40,610 nucleotides of DNA. Source: a virus. The stretch covers positions 1 through 40,610 of the IMG/VR virus record IMGVR_UViG_3300048578_000013; one strand, given 5' to 3'. The notes beneath the pieces were generated by a model. The model saw only the letters and a program-made list of their open reading frames with translations, was not told the DNA's origin and searched no databases. Positions within the stretch are counted from its first letter, which is position 1; every line of letters begins with the position of its first letter. A program made the translations under genes and the position numbers. Of this stretch, positions 5,872 to 40,610 are shown in pieces.

Positions 5872-6632
5872 GCAAGACCGATTACATGTTGGCTAACAGG
5901 GATATTGCCCTGTTCATGTCAGACAAGCCTGATAATGCTACTTATCAGACTCTGTGCCCTGTCTGTCTAGGCGGTAGGACCAAAGAAGAAAAGCTGTATG
6001 TTACCGGGAACCGGGACGGGTACGTATTCATTTGCTTCCGGGCTAACTGTGGATTCAAGGGGCGGAAAGGCCAGCAAGTGGAACCGGGATACGGGCATCG
6101 GGAATTCGTCCCTAGACCGTTCGAGCAAGAGACGGTTCAAGGGGAAACGGAATTTGAGCGGTTCGCCGGGATAACCCGTCTACGGAAGGATACTACTACG
6201 CGAGTATTCGAGTGCAGAGGACTGGACGGCGCTCTACGCGGCCACGTGACTAGGACAGCGGACAAGCAAATCAAGACATACAGGCTGTCCCCGTGTATTT
6301 ACTACACAAAAAGCAGGGATTCCAGAAATCCATTATGGATAATGGAAGACCCTGTTTCTGCGGCCAAGCTGAATTATTACAACCCGCTTATGGTTGGGCT
6401 GGCATTACTAGGAACCGACTTGTCTAATGCTGTGCGGGATGATATATGCAAATATTCGTCAGGGACTGCTTACGTTGCGCTCGACCCCGGTGCGGAGGAA
6501 GCAGCGGTATCCGTGATAAACAGCCTAACGGCCCGTGGTATAAATGCCGTGTTCGTGCCTTTACAGAAGGACATAAAGGATTTAGAATCGACGGAGATTA
6601 GAGAACTCGTCAAGACATATACGGGGATTTAA
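5868..6632 (+). CDS. DNA primase (zinc finger + TOPRIM-like)
   Basis: CPVCLGG...CFRANC zinc-binding motif and WIMEDPVSAAKL TOPRIM-like acidic motif. Sits immediately upstream of the helicase, as in a split T7 gp4. Confidence 0.75.
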   Translation: MSKTDYMLANRDIALFMSDKPDNATYQTLCPVCLGGRTKEEKLYVTGNRDGYVFICFRANCGFKGRKGQQVEPGYGHREFVPRPFEQETVQGETEFERFAGITRLRKDTTTRVFECRGLDGALRGHVTRTADKQIKTYRLSPCIYYTKSRDSRNPLWIMEDPVSAAKLNYYNPLMVGLALLGTDLSNAVRDDICKYSSGTAYVALDPGAEEAAVSVINSLTARGINAVFVPLQKDIKDLESTEIRELVKTYTGI

Positions 6633-7825
6633 TGACACCCAAAGCACTATTGTCGGCGGCTATCGCTGACCGGGACGCATTCGATTCGATTGCGGCCAGC
6701 GAGGAACCGGGATCATTCCCGGACGAACTTAAGCCTATCTGGGAGGGGGTGAAGAAATATTATGAGCTTTCTCCGGAAGCAGAATCTGCGGATATTGATA
6801 CTGTCGTGGCGTATTCGGTGGACGGTATGGCTAATCCGAAGCATCGAAAGGCGACGGAGGCGCTTGTACGGGAGACTGGACCTTCTGCGAGTCACGGAAA
6901 AAATCCTAAAGAGCTAGTCCGTCTGGCCGGACTATCCCGTGTCCGGAACGAACTGGCAGTAGCCCTCGGTAGTAGACAGAAGTACGAGGACGTAGAGCCC
7001 CTGTTGCTACAGTTCCAGTCCCTGTCTATACCGGAATCAGACGATCCGGAACTCGGCTGGAACGGGATTGTCCGTAAGCGGACGGACCGTAAAGGCCGGA
7101 TGCGGGTATCCCCCAAGGGGCTGAACGAAGCCCTTGGGGGCGGTCTGCTGCCCGGACATAATCTGACAATCTTCGGACTTACCGAGACGGGAAAATCCGC
7201 CCTCGCCCTGTCTATGGCGGTAGGCTTCGCCCGCCGTGGCCACAAGGTACTATATGTCATCAACGAGGATGCCGTGCAAGACCTGATGCTCCGGGCTATT
7301 TCGTGCATGACGGGCCGGACATATGACATTATGGAACAGGCCCCAGACGAAGCGGAAGCGGAGGCTATCCGACTGGGTATCGGTAATCTGGTTATGAGAG
7401 AGCTGGCCCCCGGCACTCTGGGAGAATTGGAGAAGCTGGTTAGACAGCACAAGCCCAAGGTACTCGTGGTTGACCAGCTACGGAACATTGACGGGAAGAA
7501 ATCCAGCAACAACACGGAGCGGCTGGACAAGGTAGCCCAAGGGGTGCGGGCTATAGGAAAACGGCACAAGCTGGTCACTATTTCCGTCACCCAAGGAGCC
7601 GACTCTGGACGGGATAAGGCTTATCTGGATACCGGGGATATTGACTCGTCTAACGTAGGCATCCCCGGTGCGGCGGACGTGCTCGTGGGGGTAGGCATGA
7701 ATGATGCCCTGTACCGCGCCGGTCAGCGGGTGCTATCCCTGTGCAAAAACAAGTTGACAGGCAAGCATGCCCATATTACGGTAAATATCCGGCCCGAGAT
7801 TAGTCGCTTCACTACAGGAGATTGA
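6632..7825 (+). CDS. DnaB-like replicative helicase
   Basis: Walker A FGLTETGKSALAL, Walker B VLVVDQLRN. TAATG coupling to the primase gene. Confidence 0.85.
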   Translation: MTPKALLSAAIADRDAFDSIAASEEPGSFPDELKPIWEGVKKYYELSPEAESADIDTVVAYSVDGMANPKHRKATEALVRETGPSASHGKNPKELVRLAGLSRVRNELAVALGSRQKYEDVEPLLLQFQSLSIPESDDPELGWNGIVRKRTDRKGRMRVSPKGLNEALGGGLLPGHNLTIFGLTETGKSALALSMAVGFARRGHKVLYVINEDAVQDLMLRAISCMTGRTYDIMEQAPDEAEAEAIRLGIGNLVMRELAPGTLGELEKLVRQHKPKVLVVDQLRNIDGKKSSNNTERLDKVAQGVRAIGKRHKLVTISVTQGADSGRDKAYLDTGDIDSSNVGIPGAADVLVGVGMNDALYRAGQRVLSLCKNKLTGKHAHITVNIRPEISRFTTGD

Positions 7826-7831
7826 ACGAAC

Positions 7832-8044
7832 ATGAATATTAGCTATGCGGACGCTCTTGACGGGGTACTCGGCAAGGATGATATTGACGGTGTTGTAGGA
7901 CTCATAGAGCAGACGAAGAACTGGGGTAACATTCGCGGGCGAGTACCCAGCTACTTGATTGTAGCCCTTGTAGATGAAATCAAGAAGCTGAAGGAACAGC
8001 AGCTTAATTTCTACAAAACCCACGGTATCAAGACGGGGGAGTAA
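7832..8044 (+). CDS. Hypothetical protein (70 aa)
   Basis: Fills the gap between helicase and polymerase. TAATG coupling downstream. Confidence 0.5.
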   Translation: MNISYADALDGVLGKDDIDGVVGLIEQTKNWGNIRGRVPSYLIVALVDEIKKLKEQQLNFYKTHGIKTGE

Positions 8045-9879
8045 TGGCCCTTCCGTTCTACCTGCAAGAGCCGGGACCGGATAACTATAGCCGGGATGAT
8101 GTCCCGTACCTGTTCGTAGACTTTGAGACGACTAACCTCGACAAGGGAGACCCCCGGAACCCGTCTAACGGGGTTGTCATGTGCGTGGTACGGGATGCCG
8201 TAAATGGGGTACACAAGGTAGACCAGCAGAAGTACCCATGGCCCAAGAAGTGTGTGCTGGTAGCCCACAACGCCAAGTTTGAGCTAGGATGGTTCCGTAG
8301 ACTGGGGGTAGACACTAAAAACTGGCTGGTATGGGATACCATGATCGCAGAGTATGTACTGGCTGGTAATCGCAAATGGGATTTGTCTCTAGACGGGACG
8401 TGCCGAAGACGGGGGATTCCCGGCAAGGCCGCCTTGGTGGACTCCATGATGTCTAGTGGGGTGTGCCCGTCCGAGATACCGGAACGGTTGCTGCTGGCCC
8501 GCTGCAAGCGGGACGTGGAGAGTTTGGCGACATTGCAACGGGAGCAGGAGCAGTTACTTAAAGCGGACGGGCTGATGCCCGTATTCTTTACCAGATGCAT
8601 TGTTACTCCCGTGTTGTCCGAGATTGAATCGCAGGGTATGGTGTTAGACGAGAAGAAAGTGGAGCAAGAATATGCCAAGCAAACGCAAGAAAAAGCCCGT
8701 ATCGAGCAGTCGCTCGCACAAATTTCCGGGGGGAGTAATCTTCGCTCAGGAAAACAACTTGGGGAATTGCTGTACGATAGACTTGGATTCCCCGAGCCGC
8801 GAGACAGGCGGGGAAACCCGGTCAGGACGCAAGCAGGTGCCCGTCCCACGGACTCGGACACAATCGCGGCCCTCACGGGCAAAACCCCGGAACAAAAAGA
8901 ATTCCTCAAGGCGTTCGGCGCGTACCGACATGCCGATAGTGCGCTGGCAAAGTCCCTTGAATTCTTCAAAGGAGTCTGCGAAGAAAAAAGAGGCGTCTTC
9001 TACGCCAACTTTAACCAGTGCGTTACAGCCACACATAGACTGTCTAGTTCGGGACAGCGGATATTGGTACGTGGGAGAACTCGCGGAGCCCAGTTCCAGA
9101 ACCTACCTAGAGAGTACAAGTCTCTTTTCTGGTCTGGGGACGAGGATTACGTTATGGTGGAAGCGGACGGTATGGGGCTGGAGTTTCGCGTGGCGGGTGA
9201 ACTGGGGAACGATCCGCAGGTATTGGCGGACATCGTTTCTGGGGAAGACGTACACCGATACACGGCTAGCATTATCTTTGGTGTGGTGCCTGATGATGTC
9301 ACGGGGAAGCAAAGAACAGCAGCCAAAGCCCATACATTCAAGCCCTTGTTTTCAGAAGGAAATTCAGGCACTCCCCGCGAACGGAAATACTACAAAGCGT
9401 TCAAGGAAAAGTACAAAGCCCTGACGGATGAGCAGGAGACATGGGTTGCCGGAGCAATGCGGCATGGGAGTATCCGTCTACCCTCCGGGCTAATAACGTA
9501 CCACACATTGAAGATGCTCCCCTCTGGATACGTGATGGGAGCTAATCAGGTACGGAATATCCCTATCCAGTCTTTTGCTACGGCCGATATCATCCCGGTA
9601 TCCCTCGTCTACACTTTCTGGGAAATGAAGGAGCAGGGGATAGACGGGGCATTGGTAAATACGGTCCACGATAGCATCGTGGGATATGTCAGGAAAACGG
9701 ATGTTGACAAGTTCCATAAGATAGTAGTAGACTGTTTCCTTGATCGTACTTACGAGTACGTTGATAAGGTTTATGGTAGAGCAATGACTGTGCCCCTAGG
9801 TGTCGGCTTCAAGGCCGGTAAGTATTGGGGGGAGGGTGAAGAAATCAAGACTTCTAGGAGGTACGTGAAACATGGCTAA
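8044..9879 (+). CDS. Family-A DNA polymerase with 3'-5' exonuclease domain (T7-like)
   Basis: Exo I FVDFETTN, Exo II VAHNAKFELGW, motif A EADGMGLEFRV, motif B RTAAKAHTFKPLF, motif C VHDSIV. Confidence 0.9.
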   Translation: MALPFYLQEPGPDNYSRDDVPYLFVDFETTNLDKGDPRNPSNGVVMCVVRDAVNGVHKVDQQKYPWPKKCVLVAHNAKFELGWFRRLGVDTKNWLVWDTMIAEYVLAGNRKWDLSLDGTCRRRGIPGKAALVDSMMSSGVCPSEIPERLLLARCKRDVESLATLQREQEQLLKADGLMPVFFTRCIVTPVLSEIESQGMVLDEKKVEQEYAKQTQEKARIEQSLAQISGGSNLRSGKQLGELLYDRLGFPEPRDRRGNPVRTQAGARPTDSDTIAALTGKTPEQKEFLKAFGAYRHADSALAKSLEFFKGVCEEKRGVFYANFNQCVTATHRLSSSGQRILVRGRTRGAQFQNLPREYKSLFWSGDEDYVMVEADGMGLEFRVAGELGNDPQVLADIVSGEDVHRYTASIIFGVVPDDVTGKQRTAAKAHTFKPLFSEGNSGTPRERKYYKAFKEKYKALTDEQETWVAGAMRHGSIRLPSGLITYHTLKMLPSGYVMGANQVRNIPIQSFATADIIPVSLVYTFWEMKEQGIDGALVNTVHDSIVGYVRKTDVDKFHKIVVDCFLDRTYEYVDKVYGRAMTVPLGVGFKAGKYWGEGEEIKTSRRYVKHG

Positions 9880-10408
9880 GGTTACTGGCAAGGTATACAA
9901 GGTTTACTGCAAGGCGTTCAACGGCAAGAATAGCTACTCCGTCAAGCTGGACGGAAACGACGTGTACTACCGGAATAACAACAAGAACCCCGGAGACATC
10001 GAGGGCAAGACCGTGGAATTCGAGGCCGGGGATGTGAACGATGCAGGCAATGCTGCTTACATCAATGGCAAAATCACTATCGTTGATACGTCTGGCCCGT
10101 CCAAACCAGCCGGTTCCAGCGGTGGGGGTAGCTGGGGAAGCAAGAACGAGCCCGCTATCCATTACCAGAATGCAGCGGGGCGGGCAATCCCGATGGTGGA
10201 CCTGCTGATTCGGAACGGGGCTATCAAGCTGCCCGCCAAGACAGCAGCTATTGCAGAGGTCATCGAGGCGGCTGTGGACCACTACACGGCCCAGTTCTTC
10301 GAGGATATCACCACGTTCGGGGCTGTGGGCCGGGCTAACGGTGAGGGAACGGCAGAAGCCTCAGAGAAGCCGGGCAAGCCTGCTGTAGACGAGGACGAGG
10401 ACGACTGA
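9872..10408 (+). CDS. Probable ssDNA-binding protein (178 aa)
   Basis: Beta-rich N-terminal half, Gly/Ser linker and acidic C-terminal tail AVDEDEDD. Positioned after the polymerase. Confidence 0.55.
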   Translation: MAKVTGKVYKVYCKAFNGKNSYSVKLDGNDVYYRNNNKNPGDIEGKTVEFEAGDVNDAGNAAYINGKITIVDTSGPSKPAGSSGGGSWGSKNEPAIHYQNAAGRAIPMVDLLIRNGAIKLPAKTAAIAEVIEAAVDHYTAQFFEDITTFGAVGRANGEGTAEASEKPGKPAVDEDEDD

Positions 10409-14759: not shown

Positions 14760-15151
14760 TGTCTACCGAAGAGCCCCCAATCTGGGAGAAGATATTCCAA
14801 GAACGACTAAAGGCTTTCCGGGAAAGTGAGGCCCCCAAGACAACGGAATCCGCCCCGGAACTTGCTCCTGTAGCTGAAGTACCGGCTATCAAGTCGGTCC
14901 CTTCTAAGCTGGCAGCTAAGGCCATACATCCCCATACGCTCCGCCCGGAAATGATAATCCGGCAATTGCTGGGGGTAACGGATAAAATCGGGGAATTGGT
15001 GGTGGTAGCCAAGATTGAGGACCAAACGGTACTCATGGCCTCTAGCGAGACCTCCGGTACATTCCTGACTATTGCTGGGGCCATACTCGAACAAGCAGGA
15101 GTGAAGGCACTAACCGCCCCCAGCCCCGGTACAGGGGGGAAAAGAGCATGA
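14759..15151 (+). CDS. Hypothetical protein (130 aa)
   Basis: TAATG coupling upstream and ATGA coupling downstream. Confidence 0.5.
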   Translation: MSTEEPPIWEKIFQERLKAFRESEAPKTTESAPELAPVAEVPAIKSVPSKLAAKAIHPHTLRPEMIIRQLLGVTDKIGELVVVAKIEDQTVLMASSETSGTFLTIAGAILEQAGVKALTAPSPGTGGKRA

Positions 15152-15339
15152 CCTGCCCCAAGACGGTTGTCTATCAGTGGACTGTAGGGGATAGGGTTGT
15201 AGTAATCCCCTTAGAAGTAAACGGAAGCGTGGCTATGGTCCGATACGATGGGGTGGCTTGTGATTATTACGTTAGATATTGGTACGAGGGAAAGTTAGTA
15301 CAGGAATGGATACCGGAGATGTATTTGAGAACCTCGTAA
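15148..15339 (+). CDS. Hypothetical protein (63 aa); last rightward gene
   Basis: ORF with ATGA coupling to the upstream gene. Confidence 0.5.
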   Translation: MTCPKTVVYQWTVGDRVVVIPLEVNGSVAMVRYDGVACDYYVRYWYEGKLVQEWIPEMYLRTS

Positions 15340-35684: not shown

Positions 35685-35721
35685 AGAAAATAAGAGGGGG
35701 CCGGGAACATGCCCGGCCCCC
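35685..35721 (-). terminator. Intrinsic terminator at the 3' end of the tRNA array
   Basis: On the minus strand: GGGGGCCGGG-loop-CCCGGCCCCC (10 bp) followed by TCTTATTTTCTCT. Confidence 0.6.
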
Positions 35722-35817
35722 GGCCGCCCGGCGCAAGGGGAGGAGGAATGCGCCATCAGCGGCCAAACTAGCCCGTTGCCAAGTCCATTGACTTGCGGGT
35801 CTTCTTTCTCCCCGATA

Positions 35818-35894
35818 TGGCACCCCCGGTAGGAGTCGAACCCACGCGCTTGACGTTCGTGGCGTCAGCCCCGAAAAGCCATCGGGCCGGAGGC
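35818..35894 (-). tRNA. tRNA-Arg(ACG), atypical C33
   Basis: Acceptor GCCTCCG/CGGGGGT (2 GU), AC arm TGACG-CCACGAA-CGTCA, T arm GTGGG-TTCGACT-CCTAC, D-loop with GG, encoded CCA. Confidence 0.55.
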
Positions 35895-35900
35895 ATAGTC

Positions 35901-35979
35901 TGGTACGCCCTGTAGGATTTGAACCCACGTAAGGCCGGGTAGAAACCGGCTGCCTGAGTCCGGGCTAGGCTAAGGGCGC
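35901..35979 (-). tRNA. tRNA-Arg(TCT)
   Basis: AC arm GCCGG-TTTCTAC-CCGGC, D arm GCCT/AGGC with GG, T-loop TTCAAAT, G1-U72, encoded CCA. Confidence 0.8.
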
Positions 35980-35986
35980 ATAAGTT

Positions 35987-36064
35987 TGGAGCGGAATACG
36001 GGAATCGAACCCGTACCTTACGGTTTGGAAGACCGACGCGCTAGCCGTTGAACACCAATTCCGC
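35987..36064 (-). tRNA. tRNA-Gly(TCC)
   Basis: Perfect acceptor GCGGAAT, AC loop CTTCCAA, T arm ACGGG-TTCGATT-CCCGT, D-loop with GG, CCA. Confidence 0.8.
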
Positions 36065-36070
36065 TTTGTG

Positions 36071-36146
36071 TGGTACCTCGTGTAGGAATCGCACCCACAT
36101 CACTTCGCTTAAAAGGCGAGTCTCTGTCTTGCTGAGTTAACGAGGC
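36071..36146 (-). tRNA. tRNA-Lys(TTT), G55 class
   Basis: AC loop CTTTTAA, T arm GTGGG-TGCGATT-CCTAC, D-loop AGCAAGACA without GG, G1-U72, CCA. Confidence 0.6.
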
Positions 36147-36153
36147 ATTATCT

Positions 36154-36228
36154 TGGTGGGCTGCCTAGGGCTCGCGCCTAGCTCTGGAGGTTAAGAGCCA
36201 ACTGCATCGCTATCTATGCTTGCAGCCC
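36154..36228 (-). tRNA. tRNA-like, best anticodon CTT (Lys?), G55 class; possibly degenerate
   Basis: Perfect acceptor GGGCTGC, T arm CTAGG-CGCGAGC-CCTAG, D arm GCAT-AGATAGCG-ATGC. The AC stem has 2 mismatches. Confidence 0.4.
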
Positions 36229-36234
36229 GGAGTT

Positions 36235-36327
36235 TGGTTGCCCTGCGCGGACTCGCACCGCGACCGCGCTCTAATCTGGAGCTACAGGGCTTATAAGGCC
36301 CTCTGTGCTGCTTTACACCACAGGGCT
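36235..36327 (-). tRNA. Long-arm tRNA with anticodon TAT (93 nt), G55 class; identity ambiguous
   Basis: AC arm AGGGC-CTTATAA-GCCCT, ~23-nt variable arm (GCTC-CAGATTA-GAGC), T arm CGCGG-TGCGAGT-CCGCG, A73, A1-A72 mismatch, CCA. Confidence 0.45.
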
Positions 36328-36328
36328 A

Positions 36329-36404
36329 TGGTGCTGCCCCTCCGTTACGCTCGGAGCCATGGCGCTCTTCAGGCGCCCGCTTCCACTAGGTTAGCTTGGG
36401 CAGC
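36329..36404 (-). tRNA. tRNA-Phe(GAA), G55 class
   Basis: Perfect acceptor GCTGCCC, AC arm GGCGC-CTGAAGA-GCGCC, T arm CTCCG-AGCGTAA-CGGAG, CCA. Confidence 0.65.
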
Positions 36405-36413
36405 AATACTAGT

Positions 36414-36725
36414 CTACTCGAATTCTGCCGTATCGTGGAACTGCTTTAGCTGATGTCCGATAGAATCGACAAACTTCTCGTCCGTGTAACTTTTGTGGTT
36501 AGCCACCCAGAGGATTGCGTGGGCTACCTCGTGCCAGAACGCTTGCATGGCTACAGATCGCTTTAGCCTACGGGTTGGTGCCAGTACATAGATAGACAGG
36601 GTATCCGGGTGAAAATACCCGTATGCTTCCTGCCCCCCGGTCAGCTTTACCATTTCCTCAAGGGAAATCTTCTTGACCGTAAATGTATGGCTGCCTAGCT
36701 GGAAGCTAGACGGAATCCTCCGCAT
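36414..36725 (-). CDS. Small HExxH zinc-metallopeptidase-like protein (103 aa) embedded in the tRNA array
   Basis: FWHEVAHAILW motif with downstream Glu (TDEKF). SD GGGGGAG 9 nt upstream. Flanked by tRNA-Asn and tRNA-Phe. Confidence 0.6.
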   Translation of the reverse strand: MRRIPSSFQLGSHTFTVKKISLEEMVKLTGGQEAYGYFHPDTLSIYVLAPTRRLKRSVAMQAFWHEVAHAILWVANHKSYTDEKFVDSIGHQLKQFHDTAEFE

Positions 36726-36745
36726 GGCGTTTTGCTCCCCCTTGA

Positions 36746-36820
36746 TGGCTGTAGCTCTAGGAATCGAACCTAGCTCGCATCCGTTAACAGCGGAGCCGCA
36801 CGCCCTGTGCGTTAGCTACA
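36746..36820 (-). tRNA. tRNA-Asn(GTT)
   Basis: Perfect acceptor TGTAGCT (U1-A72 as in bacterial Asn), AC loop CTGTTAA, T arm CTAGG-TTCGATT-CCTAG, D arm CGCA-CAGGGCG-TGCG, CCA. Confidence 0.8.
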
Positions 36821-36826
36821 ATTGTC

Positions 36827-36900
36827 TGGATGGTCCTCTACGACTCGCACGTAGATTCACGGTTTCAAAGACCGCTGTCCTGCTGTTAGACGAAGGACCA
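36827..36900 (-). tRNA. tRNA-Gln(TTG), G55 class
   Basis: Perfect acceptor TGGTCCT (U1-A72), AC loop CTTTGAA, T arm CTACG-TGCGAGT-CGTAG, D-loop TAACAGCAG without GG, CCA. Confidence 0.65.
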
Positions 36901-36904
36901 GATT

Positions 36905-36979
36905 TGGCTGATTCCCTAGGTCTTGCACCTAGATTTTCCACTTTCAGAGAATGGAGTCCTACTGTTAGACGAGGAATCA
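36905..36979 (-). tRNA. tRNA-Gln(CTG), G55 class
   Basis: Perfect acceptor TGATTCC, AC arm CCATT-CTCTGAA-AGTGG, T arm CTAGG-TGCAAGA-CCTAG. The D arm is paralogous to that of Gln(TTG). Confidence 0.65.
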
Positions 36980-36986
36980 ACATATT

Positions 36987-37058
36987 TGGCAAAGCGACTA
37001 CGAGTTGCACGCAGCTTTCCAGTTTTGGAGACTGGTACCTCACTCCGAGGATCGCCTT
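36987..37058 (-). tRNA. tRNA-Trp(CCA), G55 class
   Basis: AC arm CCAGT-CTCCAAA-ACTGG, T-loop TGCAACT (stem has 1 mismatch), short D arm CCTC-GGAGT-GAGG, A1-U72, CCA. Confidence 0.6.
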
Positions 37059-37064
37059 GTAATA

Positions 37065-37152
37065 TGGTGCAGCATCTTGGAGTCGAACCAAGCAGGCCCG
37101 CTAAGACAACTGGTTTACAGCCAGTTCGGGGTCCGTCCCCGGCTAATGCTAC
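37065..37152 (-). tRNA. tRNA-Tyr(GTA), long variable arm
   Basis: AC arm ACTGG-CTGTAAA-CCAGT, 16-nt variable region, T arm CTTGG-TTCGACT-CCAAG, CCA. Confidence 0.75.
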
Positions 37153-37156
37153 AATC

Positions 37157-37228
37157 TGGGGTGACTAGAGGGTACTGCCCCCTCCGTGGCTCGGTCACAG
37201 CGGGCGTAGCGCCTTGCGCCTAATCACC
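37157..37228 (-). tRNA. tRNA-His(GTG) with encoded G-1, G55 class, mini D-arm
   Basis: AC loop CTGTGAC, extra 5' G opposite C73, T arm GAGGG-GGCAGTA-CCCTC, D arm reduced to GCGC-AAG-GCGC, CCA. Confidence 0.6.
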
Positions 37229-37233
37229 ATAAT

Positions 37234-37310
37234 TGGAGCCTCTGGCCTCGACTTGCACGGGCCGTCTCCTCTTTACAAGAGAGGTACATCGCTATCAATG
37301 TTTCAGAGGC
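37234..37310 (-). tRNA. tRNA-Thr(TGT), G55 class
   Basis: Perfect acceptor GCCTCTG, AC arm CCTCT-CTTGTAA-AGAGG, D arm ACAT-TGATAGCG-ATGT, T-loop TGCAAGT with a bulged stem, CCA. Confidence 0.6.
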
Positions 37311-37318
37311 ATTGATCT

Positions 37319-37393
37319 TGGAGTATCGGGCCAGAATTGCACTGGCATAGATGCGGGTTGCAGCCGATCGCCTAGCTATTCAGCCACCGATAC
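37319..37393 (-). tRNA. tRNA-Cys(GCA)-like, G55 class
   Basis: Perfect acceptor GTATCGG, T arm GCCAG-TGCAATT-CTGGC, AC loop CTGCAAC but only a 3-bp AC stem, reduced D arm. Confidence 0.5.
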
Positions 37394-37394
37394 G

Positions 37395-37471
37395 TGGTAC
37401 ACCTACAGGGTGCTGCCCCCTGTCCAACGGGTTGAAAGCCCGCTATCCTAGCTATCGTAGACGATAGGTGC
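37395..37471 (-). tRNA. tRNA-Glu(TTC), G55 class
   Basis: AC arm GCGGG-CTTTCAA-CCCGT, T arm CAGGG-GGCAGCA-CCCTG, D-loop ACGATAGCT without GG, G1-U72, CCA. Confidence 0.6.
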
Positions 37472-37482
37472 ATCTACTGAAA

Positions 37483-37557
37483 TGGTGGACCGTTTGGGAA
37501 TCGCACCCAACAGGCTAGAATCTTGCAAGGATTCTCCGGGTTCCTAGCCCACAGCCC
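37483..37557 (-). tRNA. tRNA-Ala(TGC) with G3-U70, G55 class
   Basis: Acceptor GGGCTGT/ACGGTCC gives G3-U70. AC arm GAATC-CTTGCAA-GATTC, T arm TTGGG-TGCGATT-CCCAA, short D region, CCA. Confidence 0.65.
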
Positions 37558-37562
37558 AAGTA

Positions 37563-37651
37563 TGGCGGAGAGTAGTGTACTCGAAACACACACGGCTTTA
37601 CCGTGCCCTCTGTTTAGCAAACAGGTCAAGCCCCTAGCTTGTTTGCTCTCC
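37563..37651 (-). tRNA. tRNA-Ser(GCT), long variable arm
   Basis: Acceptor GGAGAGC, AC loop TTGCTAA, variable hairpin CACGG-TAAAG-CCGTG, D arm CAAG-CTAGGGG-CTTG, T-loop TTCGAGT, CCA. Confidence 0.75.
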
Positions 37652-37652
37652 G

Positions 37653-37730
37653 TGGTACGCCCTCCCGGATTCGAGCCGGGAAACATTAGGGTTTGAGCCT
37701 AACAGGTATGCCTATTCCCGTCAAGGGCGC
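37653..37730 (-). tRNA. tRNA with anticodon CAA (Leu codon UUG) but a short variable loop
   Basis: AC arm TTAGG-CTCAAAC-CCTAA, 5-nt variable loop, T arm CCCGG-CTCGAAT-CCGGG. The acceptor is identical to that of Arg(TCT). A73, CCA. Confidence 0.55.
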
Positions 37731-37735
37731 ATTAC

Positions 37736-37807
37736 TGGTACCGTATTAGAGGATTGAACTCTAGCCAGCAGCTTTGTAAGAGCCACGTCCGGCCCACCGG
37801 CTACGGT
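37736..37807 (-). tRNA. tRNA-Val(TAC)
   Basis: AC arm TGGCT-CTTACAA-AGCTG (2 GU), T arm TAGAG-TTCAATC-CTCTA, compact D arm CCGG-TGGG-CCGG, CCA. Confidence 0.65.
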
Positions 37808-37813
37808 ATAATG

Positions 37814-37904
37814 TGGCGGAAGCTACAGGGGTCGAACCTGTACGGGGGTACTAGCCCCTTCCCTGTTTTCAAGACAGATGAGCACGCCAGCTTTGCGAGC
37901 TTCC
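37814..37904 (-). tRNA. tRNA-Ser(TGA), long variable arm
   Basis: Perfect acceptor GGAAGCT, AC loop CTTGAAA, long variable arm, T arm ACAGG-TTCGACC-CCTGT, CCA. Confidence 0.75.
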
Positions 37905-37910
37905 ATTATT

Positions 37911-37984
37911 TGGCGACCCTTACGGGAATCGAACCCGTCTCGCCGAATAGACAGTTCGGCAGCCTCACCAGATGCTTAAAGAGC
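37911..37984 (-). tRNA. tRNA-Asp(GTC), atypical U37
   Basis: AC arm CCGAA-CTGTCTA-TTCGG, T arm ACGGG-TTCGATT-CCCGT. The acceptor has 1 mismatch and 2 GU. CCA. Confidence 0.6.
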
Positions 37985-37986
37985 CG

Positions 37987-38062
37987 TGGTAGCCGTTCTG
38001 GGAATCGAACCCAGTACCGCAAGGTTATCAGCCCTGTGCTCATCCTTATGAGCTTTACGGCT
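37987..38062 (-). tRNA. tRNA-Ile(GAT)
   Basis: AC arm CAGGG-CTGATAA-CCTTG, D arm GCTC-ATAAGGAT-GAGC, T arm CTGGG-TTCGATT-CCCAG, CCA. Confidence 0.8.
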
Positions 38063-38066
38063 AAAT

Positions 38067-38140
38067 TGGTCTCCAGCCGAGGAATCGAACCCCGCTAGCT
38101 GCGCCCCAAACGCAGTGCCCAGCCACTAGGCCAGCCAGAG
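38067..38140 (-). tRNA. tRNA-Pro(TGG)
   Basis: C1-G72, AC arm CTGCG-TTTGGGG-CGCAG (G37), T arm CGGGG-TTCGATT-CCTCG, D-loop with GG, CCA. Confidence 0.8.
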
Positions 38141-38142
38141 AT

Positions 38143-38218
38143 TGGAAGCGGGAGTGGGATTTGCGCCCACGACCTCCGGGTTATGAGCCCGGCGAACTGC
38201 TAACTGTTCTATCCCGCT
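38143..38218 (-). tRNA. tRNA-Met(CAT) (initiator, elongator or Ile2 not distinguishable), G55 class
   Basis: Perfect acceptor AGCGGGA, AC arm CCGGG-CTCATAA-CCCGG, D arm GAAC-AGTTAGCA-GTTC, T arm GTGGG-CGCAAAT-CCCAC, CCA. Confidence 0.65.
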
Positions 38219-38225
38219 ATAAAGT

Positions 38226-38310
38226 TGGTACCCCGCACAGGCATCGAACCTGCATGCCCGAAGGCGCTACGTTCTAAGCGTAGTGTGTCTGCCAATTCCA
38301 CCAACGGGGC
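38226..38310 (-). tRNA. tRNA-Leu(TAG), long variable arm
   Basis: AC arm CTACG-CTTAGAA-CGTAG, variable hairpin GCC-TTCG-GGC, D-loop AATTGGCAGAC (E. coli Leu-like), T-loop TTCGATG, CCA. Confidence 0.8.
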
Positions 38311-38323
38311 ACAAACCCACGTA

Positions 38324-38725
38324 TCAGGTACTCTTGCACCCCGTCTTTAGCTCAATCTTCCGAAAGGGCGCGTTTGTGAGCTTTCCGTATTGAAGGGCCT
38401 CATAGGCGGCTACTGCCGTCTCGTCGATTCCGGGCATGATAACCTGAACGAAGAACCCCTTATCTCCAATCAGTTCTACCGCAATAGGATTCCCGCAGTA
38501 GGAGAACCCGATAACGGCCTTGATGTCTCCCAGAGTAGCCAATTCTCCCGTAGACGCTATCGCAAGAGGCCGGTAAGTGTCCGGTTCGATGATTATATCC
38601 CCCGATGGGGTGCTGCCAATCCGGCTTTTCTGGGTAGCTTCTACCGTGATCTTGGCTGCCAGCCACAAAGCCCCTAGGGATATGGCTAGGGATATGATAC
38701 CCAGAACTAGGGCTTTCTTAATCAT
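38324..38725 (-). CDS. Signal-anchored/secreted protein, unknown function (133 aa)
   Basis: N-terminal hydrophobic segment ALVLGIISLAISLGALWLAA. Lies immediately upstream (in transcription) of the tRNA array. Confidence 0.55.
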   Translation of the reverse strand: MIKKALVLGIISLAISLGALWLAAKITVEATQKSRIGSTPSGDIIIEPDTYRPLAIASTGELATLGDIKAVIGFSYCGNPIAVELIGDKGFFVQVIMPGIDETAVAAYEALQYGKLTNAPFRKIELKTGCKST

Positions 38726-38803: not shown

Positions 38804-39220
38804 CTATCCTCCCTTTTTACCCTTCTTGGGTTTTGCGGAGGTATTCAGGGTAGTAGAAGCGATATCCGGAGTCCCGGCTGTTTCTACTTCGGGCTGTTGG
38901 GCAGCCTCGGGGGGGCCTGAATCCTCGTTCGTCTTGGGCGGAACCCAGTTTCGGTTATTCCATGCCCGTGTAATGTCTTCCTTTAGCCGTTCGTGATACT
39001 CTTGCTGGGATTCTGTGTTCTTTCTGGCAAGTACCGGATACACGTAAAAGGGAGTCTCCTCCCCGTTCTGGTACACAGCCACTACCCTGTCCGGAGAATT
39101 CATGGTATTAGCCCCACAAATCTCAAACTTGTGGTTAGCCTTTAGAATATTACGGAATGTAGTAGTCAGAACCCCATTATCACAAGCAATCTCAAAGAAT
39201 GTGTACCGGCTGTAGATCAT
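38804..39220 (-). CDS. Hypothetical early protein (138 aa)
   Basis: ATG 39220 with SD GGGGAGGGG, preferred over track TTG 39244. Lys-rich C-terminal tail. Confidence 0.55.
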   Translation of the reverse strand: MIYSRYTFFEIACDNGVLTTTFRNILKANHKFEICGANTMNSPDRVVAVYQNGEETPFYVYPVLARKNTESQQEYHERLKEDITRAWNNRNWVPPKTNEDSGPPEAAQQPEVETAGTPDIASTTLNTSAKPKKGKKGG

Positions 39221-39265
39221 GGTCCCGTATCCCCTCCCCCACAAGAATATTTTACGTACAGTAGT

Positions 39266-39294
39266 ATTCTAACTTATCCGTTACACAATGTCAA
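39266..39294 (-). promoter_or_regulatory. Sigma70-like promoter TTGACA-17-TAGAAT (leftward, proximal)
   Basis: The minus strand reads TTGACA ttgtgtaacggataagt TAGAAT. It lies ~45 nt upstream of the 39220 start. Confidence 0.55.
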
Positions 39295-39385
39295 GAACTA
39301 TTACAGGATACGAGGCTCGCTAGAGCCGAGTCCCATGGAATGGTACTCGTCTCACTCGCCTCGTCCATAGTCCGGTCCCGTACTC

Positions 39386-39405
39386 GGCGGCCCCCCAAGG
39401 CCGCC
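39386..39405. repeat. GC hairpin GGCGGCC-CCCCAA-GGCCGCC; first of three CCCC(T)CAAGG(G) elements
   Basis: 7-bp stem. Related elements sit at 39437-39446 (CCCCCAAGGG) and 39498-39513 (GCCCCC-TCAA-GGGGGC). Confidence 0.7.
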
Positions 39406-39535
39406 TCGTCTTCCTACTTTATACTAGGCGGAGCGACCCCCAAGGGAGCGACGCATCTACCCCCATCCGCATCCGGGCCTGTGGCCCGTCTGCTCCCGCC
39501 CCCTCAAGGGGGCCTATTCTCTAGTAGTACCGTCA

Positions 39536-39564
39536 ATTCTAACTCCGTAGGAGAGACTTGTCAA
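39536..39564 (-). promoter_or_regulatory. Sigma70-like promoter TTGACA-17-TAGAAT (leftward, distal)
   Basis: The minus strand reads TTGACA agtctctcctacggagt TAGAAT. Hexamers and spacing are identical to the proximal promoter. Confidence 0.55.
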
Positions 39565-39573
39565 GTTATTTCC

Positions 39574-39606
39574 GACGAACGGTAGATATCCCGGTATGAA
39601 CGGTAG
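39574..39606. repeat. Iteron pair GACGAACGGTAG / TATGAACGGTAG, 21 bp apart
   Basis: GAACGGTAG occurs at 39577-39585 and 39598-39606 in the same orientation. Confidence 0.8.
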
Positions 39607-39737
39607 TTATCCACAGGTTATACATGGAAAGTGGTCATGCCTTAATGGGAATCATTCTCAGTATAGGGTCCCCTTTCCCCGATCCTTTTTTACTGTACTG
39701 GGATACCAGATTTAGACTTTTATGGCTCATAAATACT

Positions 39738-39809
39738 TTATGTGGCCCAAATTCCTATAACCCTTTGTTTTGTATACGGAAATGGATATTAGTGGCCGGT
39801 TATGTGGCC
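39738..39809. repeat. Two copies of TTATGTGGCC inside an AT-rich segment
   Basis: Exact 10-mers at 39738-39747 and 39800-39809. The surrounding 39620-39860 is visibly AT-rich relative to the rest of the genome. Confidence 0.7.
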
Positions 39810-39951
39810 AGTACCGGATTCCTGCAATCCTCCTGATAAGGGAATGCGGGTATTGATGTAATAATTAATGGCCCACGGGGCCTCCCGGCCTATTGCTGCC
39901 CGTCCCGGTCCCGTCTACCGCCCCCGGTCCGGATTATGACCGGTCCCAGCC

Positions 39952-39984
39952 GATGAACGGTAGCCATGGCACGACGAACGGTAT
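39952..39984. repeat. Iteron pair GATGAACGGTAG / GACGAACGGTAT, 21 bp apart
   Basis: GAACGGTAG at 39955-39963 and GAACGGTAT at 39976-39984. Same orientation and spacing as the 39577/39598 pair. Confidence 0.8.
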
Positions 39985-40013
39985 TGGTAACATCACAGTA
40001 CCGGAACCGGGGG

Positions 40014-40029
40014 CCTAGACCGGTCTAGG
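40014..40029. repeat. 16-bp perfect palindrome CCTAGACCGGTCTAGG
   Basis: Self-complementary and centred on ACCGGT, like the palindromes at 3769-3782 and 3806-3817. Confidence 0.85.
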
Positions 40030-40073
40030 GGATAGTGGGGATTGCCGGGGGGTGTCCTCGGTCTGGCCCGTGG

Positions 40074-40110
40074 GGGCGGGGGAGTCGGACCGGCCACGCG
40101 GCCCCCGCCC
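40074..40110. repeat. GC-rich inverted repeat GGGCGGGGG ... CCCCCGCCC (9-bp arms, 19-nt loop)
   Basis: Arms at 40074-40082 and 40102-40110 are perfectly complementary. Confidence 0.7.
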
Positions 40111-40151
40111 GGAACCGCTAGACCTGTATTACTCGGCCAGCATAGGTCGAT

Positions 40152-40540: not shown

Positions 40541-40610
40541 CCGGTATGCACAATACCGCCCCGGTATGCACAATACCGCCCCGGTATGCACAATACCGCC
40601 CCGGTATGCA
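40541..40610. repeat. Terminal tandem repeat, identical to 1-70
   Basis: Same 3.5 copies of CCGGTATGCACAATACCGCC. Confidence 0.95.

Follow-up and report, generated by a model that had tools for sequence, protein, structure and literature searches.

The minus strand of the window analysed here (the whole stretch of 40,610 nucleotides, virus record IMGVR_UViG_3300048578_000013) carries a dense array of 26 tRNA-like units, which extends from position 38310 to position 35818. The units do not overlap and are 72–93 nt long. All 26 anticodons are different and all 20 amino acids are represented. Most probably, the array is a working polycistronic tRNA operon that frees translation of this phage from the tRNA pool of its host; the probability of this reading is estimated at roughly three in four. 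Comparison of variants supports the assignment of the units as real bacterial-type tRNA genes under strong purifying selection, and the codon usage of array-bearing phages differs from that of their closest array-less relative.

A/T-rich spacers of 1–11 nt separate the tRNA units, and each of the 26 ends with a discriminator base and an encoded CCA. Along the minus strand, 19 tRNAs are followed by an open reading frame (ORF) of 103 amino acids (aa) and by seven further tRNAs. The density amounts to 10.4 tRNA genes per kb (26 in 2493 nt). An earlier interpretation of the same letters, the sequence-only reading, had described this arrangement of 26 minus-strand genes with one interruption by an ORF. 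All tiled units were recovered by the various modes of ARAGORN and a hand parse. The anticodons had been called correctly throughout, and the short spacers and the CCA on every unit are borne out. The estimate that about 6% of the genome is tRNA needs correction: tRNA sequence sums to 2031 nt (5.0%), and 6.1% is the span of the array.

Each four-codon box is served by one tRNA with U34, or with A34 in the case of CGN (anticodons UAG, UAC, UGA, UGG, UGU, UGC, UCC and ACG). The 18 remaining tRNAs serve split boxes. UUA has no reader in the array and the CAU tRNA is present in a single copy; these features of the set had all been predicted. The tRNA-Met(CAU) is closely similar to tRNA-fMet, with GGG:CCC in the anticodon stem, A11:U24, A1:U72 and U73. 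Its elbow is remodelled (D loop AGUUAGCA, T loop CGCAAAU). With this initiator-like unit as the sole CAU tRNA, the set may lack an elongator tRNA-Met.

Two sigma-70-like promoters of the predicted form TTGACA-17-TAGAAT are located upstream of the array (Table 1). The proximal one is followed by two ORFs (38804–39244 and 38324–38725) and then by the array, and a further promoter-like site lies within the ORF just 5′ of the first tRNA. The strong terminator that had been placed at 35685–35721 corresponds to a hairpin and a T run directly 3′ of the array. Together, these sequence signals support the assignment of the array as a promoter-to-terminator unit.

ARAGORN in default mode called 16 tRNAs, all in the strand of the array, and none elsewhere in the window. 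Relaxed thresholds (-ps90 and -ps80) added Lys-UUU, Phe, Trp, Cys, Ser-GCU and Arg-ACG, and the organellar mode (-mt) added Lys-CUU, Thr-UGU and Glu-UUC. The tRNA-His was called by no tool. It was parsed by hand and has a 7-bp acceptor stem (GUGAUUA/UAGUCAC), G-1:C73, the anticodon loop CUGUGAC and CCA after the discriminator. A cloverleaf with a 7-bp acceptor stem and a 7-nt anticodon loop is thus obtained for 25 units in some ARAGORN mode and for His by hand. U33 is present in all units except Arg-ACG (C33), and position 37 is a purine in all except Asp (U37). The general tRNA model of Rfam (RF00005, gathering threshold 29 bits) recognised seven units in a scan of the whole window and 10 of the 26 in a local scan. 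Ser-UGA, Tyr and Pro matched the Sec model only, below threshold. In a 501-nt scan over Trp, Tyr, His, Thr, Cys and Glu, Cys alone passed, and Trp, His, Thr and Glu gave no match even at E ≤ 10. Default tRNA detection therefore misses 10–16 of the 26 genes.

According to the sequence-only reading, recognition of only a handful of loci by a covariance model would speak against the array. With 10 of 26 units passing, the outcome is intermediate, so the case must rest on other evidence. Part of this evidence is the arrangement itself. In related phage DNA, relaxed ARAGORN gives 3–9 scattered matches per 21 kb, distributed over both strands; 25 abutting matches on the same strand within 2.5 kb exclude chance. 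Thermodynamic folding of single units yielded cloverleaf-like structures for Thr and Glu only, with weak z-scores, and is uninformative for tRNAs.

The units also carry bacterial identity elements that fit their anticodons. These comprise G3:U70 in Ala, G-1:C73 in His, C1:G72 in Pro, U1:A72 in both Gln, U73 in Cys and Gly, and G73 in Asp, Asn, Trp, Gln-CUG and both Ser. Long variable arms are found in Leu-UAG, Tyr and both Ser. Exceptions are Met and Thr, both with U73, and Glu with A73. The weakest units are His, Thr with its bulged T stem, Glu, Lys-CUU with three of five anticodon-stem pairs, and Arg-ACG with C33. Of the two folds that had been singled out as weakest, Lys-CUU is therefore confirmed, and Cys is not (36.8 bits in Rfam).

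Table 1. Positions of the array units, the embedded ORF and the putative transcription signals in the window.
Feature	Position	Strand	Support	Remarks
Promoter, sigma-70-like, distal	39536–39564	−	11/12 consensus matches	TTGACA-17-TAGAAT
Promoter, sigma-70-like, proximal	39266–39294	−	11/12 consensus matches	TTGACA-17-TAGAAT
Promoter-like site	38592–38619	−	11/12 matches	TTGGCA-16-TATAAT
tRNA-Leu(UAG)	38226–38310	−	ARAGORN default; Rfam 41.4 bits	class II, A73, CCA
tRNA-Met(CAU)	38143–38218	−	ARAGORN default; Rfam 60.4 bits	initiator-like
tRNA-Pro(UGG)	38067–38140	−	ARAGORN default	C1:G72, A73
tRNA-Ile(GAU)	37987–38062	−	ARAGORN default; Rfam 46.5 bits	
tRNA-Asp(GUC)	37911–37985	−	ARAGORN default; Rfam 42.3 bits	G73, unusual U37
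tRNA-Ser(UGA)	37814–37904	−	ARAGORN default	class II, G73
tRNA-Val(UAC)	37736–37808	−	ARAGORN default	A73
tRNA(CAA)	37653–37730	−	ARAGORN default; Rfam 40.1 bits	78 nt, class I tRNA-Leu, A73
tRNA-Ser(GCU)	37563–37651	−	relaxed ARAGORN	class II, G73
tRNA-Ala(UGC)	37483–37557	−	ARAGORN default	G3:U70, A73
tRNA-Glu(UUC)	37395–37471	−	ARAGORN -mt	non-canonical T arm CAGGG-GGCAGCA-CCCUG
tRNA-Cys(GCA)	37319–37393	−	relaxed ARAGORN; Rfam 36.8 bits	U73
tRNA-Thr(UGU)	37234–37310	−	ARAGORN -mt	bulged A in T stem
tRNA-His(GUG)	37157–37228	−	hand parse	G-1:C73, 3-nt D loop, T loop GGCAGUA
tRNA-Tyr(GUA)	37065–37152	−	ARAGORN default	class II (bacterial type), A73
tRNA-Trp(CCA)	36987–37058	−	relaxed ARAGORN	G73
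tRNA-Gln(CUG)	36905–36979	−	ARAGORN default	U1:A72, G73
tRNA-Gln(UUG)	36827–36900	−	ARAGORN default; Rfam 48.6 bits	ancestral tRNA of the locus
tRNA-Asn(GUU)	36746–36820	−	ARAGORN default	G73
103-aa ORF	36414–36725	−	sequence, predicted structure	minimal HExxH...E zincin-like protein
tRNA-Phe(GAA)	36329–36404	−	relaxed ARAGORN	A73, T loop AGCGUAA
tRNA(UAU)	36235–36327	−	ARAGORN default	93 nt, variable arm GCUC-CAGAUUA-GAGC, A1.A72 mismatch, A73
tRNA-Lys(CUU)	36154–36228	−	ARAGORN -mt	weak anticodon stem, 3/5 pairs
tRNA-Lys(UUU)	36071–36146	−	relaxed ARAGORN; Rfam 40.6 bits	
tRNA-Gly(UCC)	35987–36064	−	ARAGORN default; Rfam 36.6 bits	U73
tRNA-Arg(UCU)	35901–35979	−	ARAGORN default; Rfam 50.9 bits	
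tRNA-Arg(ACG)	35818–35894	−	ARAGORN -ps80	C33, most variable unit
Intrinsic terminator	35696–35721	−	sequence	10 G-C pairs, then T run

Several metagenome projects have yielded the same array, which is present in a dozen contigs or more; among the samples are Copenhagen sewage (ERZ22666009) and two from JGI (3300048574 and 3300048579). The source contig is L014. Ten array-bearing contigs were compared with the window. One of them (L015) is essentially identical to it, with 1 difference in 2581 nt, and the following ranges cover the nine that differ. The tRNA genes diverge by 0.2–1.4% (0.0–1.4% over all ten) and the array spacers by 2–9%. In the flanking genes, the divergence is 1.2–3.5% at codon positions 1+2 and 12–22% at four-fold degenerate sites. 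The tRNA divergence is 10–50 times below that of the four-fold sites and also below that of codon positions 1+2. Eleven units are invariant across the variants; these include Lys-UUU and the oddest ones, His, Glu and Cys. A recent sweep of the whole block is an unlikely cause of the low tRNA divergence. The embedded 103-aa ORF has about 25 variable sites across the variants, almost all of them at third codon positions, and its protein is identical. As the synonymous divergence of this ORF is normal, the low divergence of the tRNAs reflects selection.

Several changes between variants affect both sides of a base pair. In three contigs (L019, L008 and L020), the Thr anticodon stem has four successive pairs in which both bases are exchanged. 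Two-sided changes are also found at 30:42 of Tyr, at 29:43 of Phe and at the T-stem pair 67:81 of the UAU unit. In the Asp acceptor stem of L006, two G-U wobble pairs are replaced by Watson-Crick pairs. The Glu unit of a relative whose terminase is 81% identical (L003) shares 94.6% identity with that of the window; it shows compensatory changes at 1:72 and 3:70 and has the same odd T loop. One variant (L018, ENA ERZ27249457 k141_194761) has a clean 84-nt deletion, equivalent to 35817–35900 of the window, which removes exactly the Arg-ACG unit and a spacer. This deletion shows that gain and loss act on single units.

The codon usage of the window is fairly even, with a G+C content at third codon positions of about 0.58–0.59. 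Among the Leu codons, UUA is used least, with 37 occurrences (4%). The reference for a comparison of the structural genes was L009, which is the nearest relative without the array; it has a single tRNA, a terminase with 89% identity and a G+C content of 0.61 at third positions. The share of CUA among Leu codons is 0.30 in the window versus 0.05 in L009 (p=3.5e-18). The corresponding shares are 0.16 versus 0.03 for UCA among the UCN codons of Ser (p=3e-5), 0.19 versus 0.08 for CCA among Pro codons (p=0.003), 0.19 versus 0.11 for ACA among Thr codons (p=0.009) and 0.39 versus 0.27 for GUA among Val codons (p=0.005). AUA differs in the same direction without being significant (0.22 versus 0.16). 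A second array-bearing contig, L006, has values equal to those of the window. The enriched A-ending codons are the exact pairing partners of the U34 tRNAs of the array. Such a shift would be expected if the array had lifted a constraint imposed by the host tRNA pool. The relation is correlative; it is the sole evidence here on the type of benefit, and it points to codon decoupling.

The tRNA content of the locus varies between relatives. Contigs with a terminase at least 98% identical (L006–L008, L013–L021) carry the full array, except for the loss of Arg-ACG in L018. At 89% identity (L009–L012), only tRNA-Gln(UUG) is present, beside an 81-aa homologue of the array ORF; in L009–L011 this lone tRNA is 97–99% identical to the window copy. 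Relatives at 81–83% (L003–L005) have Glu and Gln, or a single Thr-CGU, and four lineages at 56–68% (L022–L026) have no tRNAs at the locus. At 66% identity, a contig of 42,374 bp (L161, ENA ERZ27251177 k141_739903, GC 0.60) has about 22 tRNAs arrayed at this locus (6794–8637). Their order differs from that of the window, and clear relatedness is limited to a few units (Glu 87%, Leu-CAA 80%, Pro). The array of L161 is independent of that of the window. Given this variation, arrays have been gained, lost and rebuilt within the phage family. A UAU tRNA was not seen in L161, and the use of AUA is near zero in L031, which is near-identical to it.

In the lineage of the window, the array seems to have grown by insertion at three or more sites beside the ancestral Gln tRNA and the ORF, which fits accretion. 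Searches of phage, plasmid, IMG/VR and genome collections brought up no donor array of high nucleotide identity, so acquisition as a block is not indicated. A blastn search with the array as query, covering 50,697 phage records and 72,556 plasmids, gave single-tRNA matches only (72–84%). Motif-based scans revealed related arrays and no high-identity donor. A 15-mer scan of 596 Gb of genomes returned mostly chance matches, as expected, with a tRNA context in 4 of the 120 loci listed. An origin by duplication within the array is unsupported: the best pair, Gln-CUG and Gln-UUG, is 71% identical and the median pairwise identity is 54%. Leu-CAA and Arg-UCU have a common acceptor stem.

Many units deviate from the canonical tRNA architecture at the elbow. 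The full canonical combination of GG in the D loop and a UUC T loop is present in 12 of the 26 units. The tRNA(CAA) has the GG D loop but a CUC T loop. In the other 13 units, the T loops are of the NGC form (UGCGA, UGCAA, CGCAA or CGCGA), of the form GGCAGYA or otherwise divergent, and GG is mostly absent, with AGC in its place. The two loops covary. In the window, GG is found in 12 of 12 tRNAs with a TTC loop versus 2 of 9 with an NGC loop (p=3e-4), and in nine other arrays the numbers are 143 of 153 versus 1 of 17 (p=8e-15). The switch can be followed in a single isotype: the Gln tRNA of L003 combines AAUUGGCA with UUCGAGU, and those of the window and L009 combine AACAGCA with UGCGAGU. A literature search on tRNAs with remodelled elbows yielded nothing relevant.

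The second form of remodelled elbow, beside the AGC-type D loop with an NGC T loop, is the T arm CAGGG-GGCAGCA-CCCUG (found with Glu, Lys, Thr, Pro, Gly and UAU). In Glu this arm is 17 nt long (CAGGGGGCAGCACCCUG); ten other IMG/VR contigs match it, with GC contents of 33–60%, and in nine of them it lies in tRNA-like units. These nine unrelated viral contigs (L027–L032, L034–L036) contain CAGGGGGCAGCACCCTG exactly, and the tenth match (L033) has no tRNA context. The shared T arm serves Lys-CUU, Glu, Thr, Pro and UAU tRNAs, mostly in large arrays that are partly called by ARAGORN, and the units that contain it are skipped in default mode. In L028, the GGCAGCA loop is also present on a different T stem, in a Gly-GCC unit.

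Two further units depart from the usual class of their isotype. The tRNA(CAA) has a D arm of the Leu type and A73 and lacks the long variable arm; short tRNA-Leu genes are common in such arrays. UUG codons align with Leu in orthologues. In L028, all four tRNA-Leu genes are short (75–76 nt) and without a long variable arm. The tRNA(UAU), on the other hand, has a variable region of 23 nt that contains a hairpin. This hairpin (GCTCCAGATTAGAGC), always together with the anticodon UAU, is found in four other viral contigs and in four contigs of Acidobacteriota metagenome-assembled genomes (MAGs), and the identity of its sequence in the resulting family of nine (window, L030, L038, L039, L040, L074, L113, L142 and L149) is partly due to the search by exact match. 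The acceptor, anticodon and T stems of the family vary, with 2–4 pair types at each position, and pairing is canonical in at least 95%. In the MAGs (Bryobacteraceae and Pyrinomonadaceae), the UAU tRNA lies within arrays of 16–26 genes each time, and the gene order UAU, Lys-CUU, Lys-UUU ... Arg-ACG is partly common to these arrays and the window. Recoding of AUA to Leu by this class II tRNA was considered and rejected. At 194 AUA positions, orthologues have Ile in 48%, Val in 21% and Leu in 12%, the same profile as for AUC and AUU. AUA therefore still means Ile.

Tentatively, these units might belong to a mobile lineage of 'array tRNAs' with altered structural rules, which evade tRNA-targeting defences or serve a partner protein; we regard this as rather unlikely at present. 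The rules would comprise the remodelled elbow, the short tRNA-Leu and the long-armed tRNA-Ile(UAU), which are common to unrelated phages and Acidobacteriota arrays. If such a lineage exists, current tRNA finders systematically undercount viral tRNAs. As the missed genes are recurring structural types in other viral and bacterial arrays, the viral tRNA content in databases is probably underestimated.

A tRNA operon of this kind would work as follows. The sigma-70 RNA polymerase of the host would transcribe from about 39.3–39.6 kb through two small ORFs, 19 tRNAs, the zincin-like ORF and seven tRNAs to 35.7 kb, and host RNases would cut the short A/T-rich spacers. No CCA addition would be needed since CCA is already encoded, and the bacterial identity elements would allow host synthetases to charge the tRNAs. 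Provided that U34 and I34 wobble in the way known from minimal decoding systems, the set would read all sense codons except UUA. Complete decoding would require four-way reading by U34 and editing of A34 to I34, both of which depend on nucleotide modifications. The phage would then be free to use CUA, UCA, CCA, ACA, GUA and AUA, which array-less relatives avoid, and translation would continue if host tRNAs ran short. The array itself may have accreted around the ancestral tRNA-Gln(UUG) and the ORF in one lineage, drawing on a mobile pool of array tRNAs of phages and some bacterial arrays. The earlier proposal that the phage carries its own full decoding capacity is upheld as far as the non-redundant set for 20 amino acids, the purifying selection and the codon shift are concerned. 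It is too far-reaching with respect to UUA, which has no reader, and to the initiator-like CAU tRNA.

Several observations weigh against a working operon. The universal elbow of G18G19 and U54-U55-C56 is absent from about half of the units, and 16 of the 26 are rejected by the general covariance model for tRNAs. With the defects in Thr, Lys-CUU, Arg-ACG (C33) and Asp (U37), decoding by some units could be poor or absent; in the array of Anabaena, 3 of 26 tRNA genes were judged to be pseudogenes (PMC8421152). The full set is not essential, as the variant L018 lacks Arg-ACG. A host switch or a changed mutational bias could explain part of the codon shift.

A different reason for selection is conceivable. 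The array may mainly be a spare pool that replaces host tRNAs depleted or cleaved during defence, its altered loops and elbows escaping nucleases such as PrrC, VapC, colicin-like tRNases, PARIS, retron or Septu effectors and Schlafen-like nucleases. This explanation is possible but less likely than not, and it is compatible with the operon proposed here, from which it differs in why the array is kept. All isotypes without redundancy would be expected if any host tRNA may be lost. The elbow is remodelled in about half of the tRNAs, several loops are unusual, and the odd forms are conserved across unrelated phages. The hypothesis has been published for phage tRNAs in general (PMC10264068), and a passage of another report refers to units of tRNA arrays as putative anti-defence systems (PMC12803027). 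The published argument, however, rests on changes in the anticodon loop, and the anticodon loops of the array are mostly standard (U33 and 7 nt in 25 of 26). No tRNA-targeting system is known for the phage. The codon shift is predicted by codon decoupling and would not be needed for a pure spare pool. It bears on codon matching. The observations do not distinguish between defence evasion and codon matching as the benefit.

That the array is instead a selfish or hitch-hiking mobile element of the L-array type, decaying and rich in pseudogenes, is very improbable. Its patchy distribution among relatives, the motifs common to arrays of unrelated phages and Acidobacteriota MAGs, the poor scores of many units with standard models and the loss of one unit in L018 would fit such an element. 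The conservation data already largely refute it: decay is at odds with a tRNA divergence 10–50 times below that of four-fold sites, with invariance of the oddest units and with compensatory changes. The 26 distinct anticodons and the concomitant codon shift also speak against it, and no homing endonuclease or transposase is found inside or adjoining the array. Just as little probability is given to tRNA-like RNAs that act outside translation, as decoys or sponges, replication primers or attachment sites. Non-canonical elbows might impair interactions with the ribosome or RNase P, and the invariant motifs in T arms and variable arms across phages resemble protein-binding sites. A complete and non-redundant anticodon set with matching synthetase identity elements would nevertheless be purposeless in a decoy. 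No integrase is present in the window, and orthologues have the expected amino acids opposite AUA, UUG and CUA codons.

The carrier is a tailed phage from wastewater metagenomes. Positions 1–70 and 40541–40610 of the window are identical, each end consisting of 3.5 copies of the 20-nt unit CCGGTATGCACAATACCGCC. From the identical ends, the genome is complete at about 40,540 bp and either closed or terminally redundant. The repeats are located in a divergent non-coding region that separates two gene blocks and may be iterons of an origin or a packaging site. The carrier encodes PolA, a DnaB-like helicase, terminase, portal, capsid and an SU10-type adaptor, and it belongs to a family of SU10-like podophages of 40–44 kb. 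No close relative was found among 50,697 deposited phage genomes; many relatives, in more than 100 terminase clusters, are present in metagenomes. A host search via the terminase in IMG/VR gave two distant fragments only, both without tRNAs. Upstream of the promoters, a long G+C-rich stretch (39300–40150, minus strand) has no ORF of at least 80 aa on the gene strand and contains several strong hairpins, for example at about 40120–40070 and at 39510–39495. In the relative L004 (terminase 83% identical), an ORF resembling LAGLIDADG homing endonucleases (14817–15257) lies directly upstream of the capsid gene; it has no counterpart in the window.

The protein encoded within the array has invariant residues H65, E66 and H69 and a nearly invariant E83, and its structure is predicted with high confidence (pLDDT 97). 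Resemblance to zincins in sequence or fold is weak (anthrax lethal factor, IrrE/PprI, minigluzincins and Wss1/SprT). The protein belongs to phrog_1233 and to a large family of HExxH phage proteins of about 100 aa. A role as an array-associated factor was rejected: a homologue lies beside the lone tRNA-Gln of the array-less L009, and none is present in the other arrays examined. By this distribution, the ORF is most likely an ancestral neighbour of the locus and not a component of the array.

Relatives with 0, 1, 2, about 22 and 26 tRNAs form a natural series for testing why phages carry tRNAs, and gain of the array coincides with release from a codon constraint (CUA from 5% to 30% of Leu). Concrete objects for structural and enzymological work are the altered elbow, the short tRNA-Leu and the long-armed tRNA(UAU).

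With 26 genes at 10.4 per kb, the array falls under the definition of a tRNA cluster or array unit (at least 15–20 tRNA genes, at least 2 per kb; PMC6409571, PMC4758250). Viral tRNA clusters, as in T5-like phages, cluster C/M mycobacteriophages and phages of Caulobacter and Cellulophaga, are likewise dense runs of at least 15 genes on one strand, some with all 20 isotypes. In the survey by Morgado and Vicente (2019), such clusters were confined to genomes of 72–617 kb, with at most 23 tRNAs in Podoviridae and densities of about 2–10 tRNAs per kb (PMC6409571). The window differs by its genome of 40.5 kb, its density, the lack of duplicated anticodons and its many non-canonical structures. Measured against this survey, the array is very unusual for a small podovirus, as the sequence-only reading had stated, but it is not unique. 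L161 has about 22 tRNAs, and the unrelated contig L028 (IMGVR_UViG_3300050821_002264, 50,876 bp) has at least 30: within about 3.7 kb (~6280–10000), 30 tRNAs are called by ARAGORN and several non-canonical units are left uncalled.

L-arrays comprise 20–43 tRNA genes, are patchy and spread horizontally on plasmids, conjugative elements and phages (Tran 2016, PMC4758250; Santamaria-Gomez 2021, PMC8421152). The array of the window shares their patchy presence and non-periodic order and resembles long examples such as the 26-gene trn operon of Anabaena PCC 7120. L-arrays are spare copies beside a full cellular set, and that of Anabaena is silent until translation is stressed (PMC8421152). The array described here, in contrast, is the only tRNA set of its carrier, has constitutive-looking promoters and seems to have grown at three or more insertion points.

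The minimal sets of Mollicutes, plastids and mitochondria have the same layout: each four-codon box is served by one tRNA with U34, CGN by one with A34, tRNA-Met is present once, and the anticodons number 26. They are the product of genome reduction, and in them an unmodified U34 has been shown to read all four codons. The set of the window was built by gain and keeps C34 tRNAs for Gln and Lys beside the U34 ones. The nev-tRNAs of nematodes share with the UAU tRNA of the window the long class II variable arm and the anticodon UAU, and nev-tRNA-Ile (UAU) is charged with Leu in vitro (Hamashima 2012, PMC3333845). In the phage, however, AUA still means Ile, and the UAU family has its own variable-arm hairpin, identical in nine members. 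As a phage tRNA cluster or mobile array, the system is thus of a known kind, in an unusually small genome; new are the remodelling of the elbow, the class I tRNA-Leu(CAA) and the long-armed tRNA(UAU).

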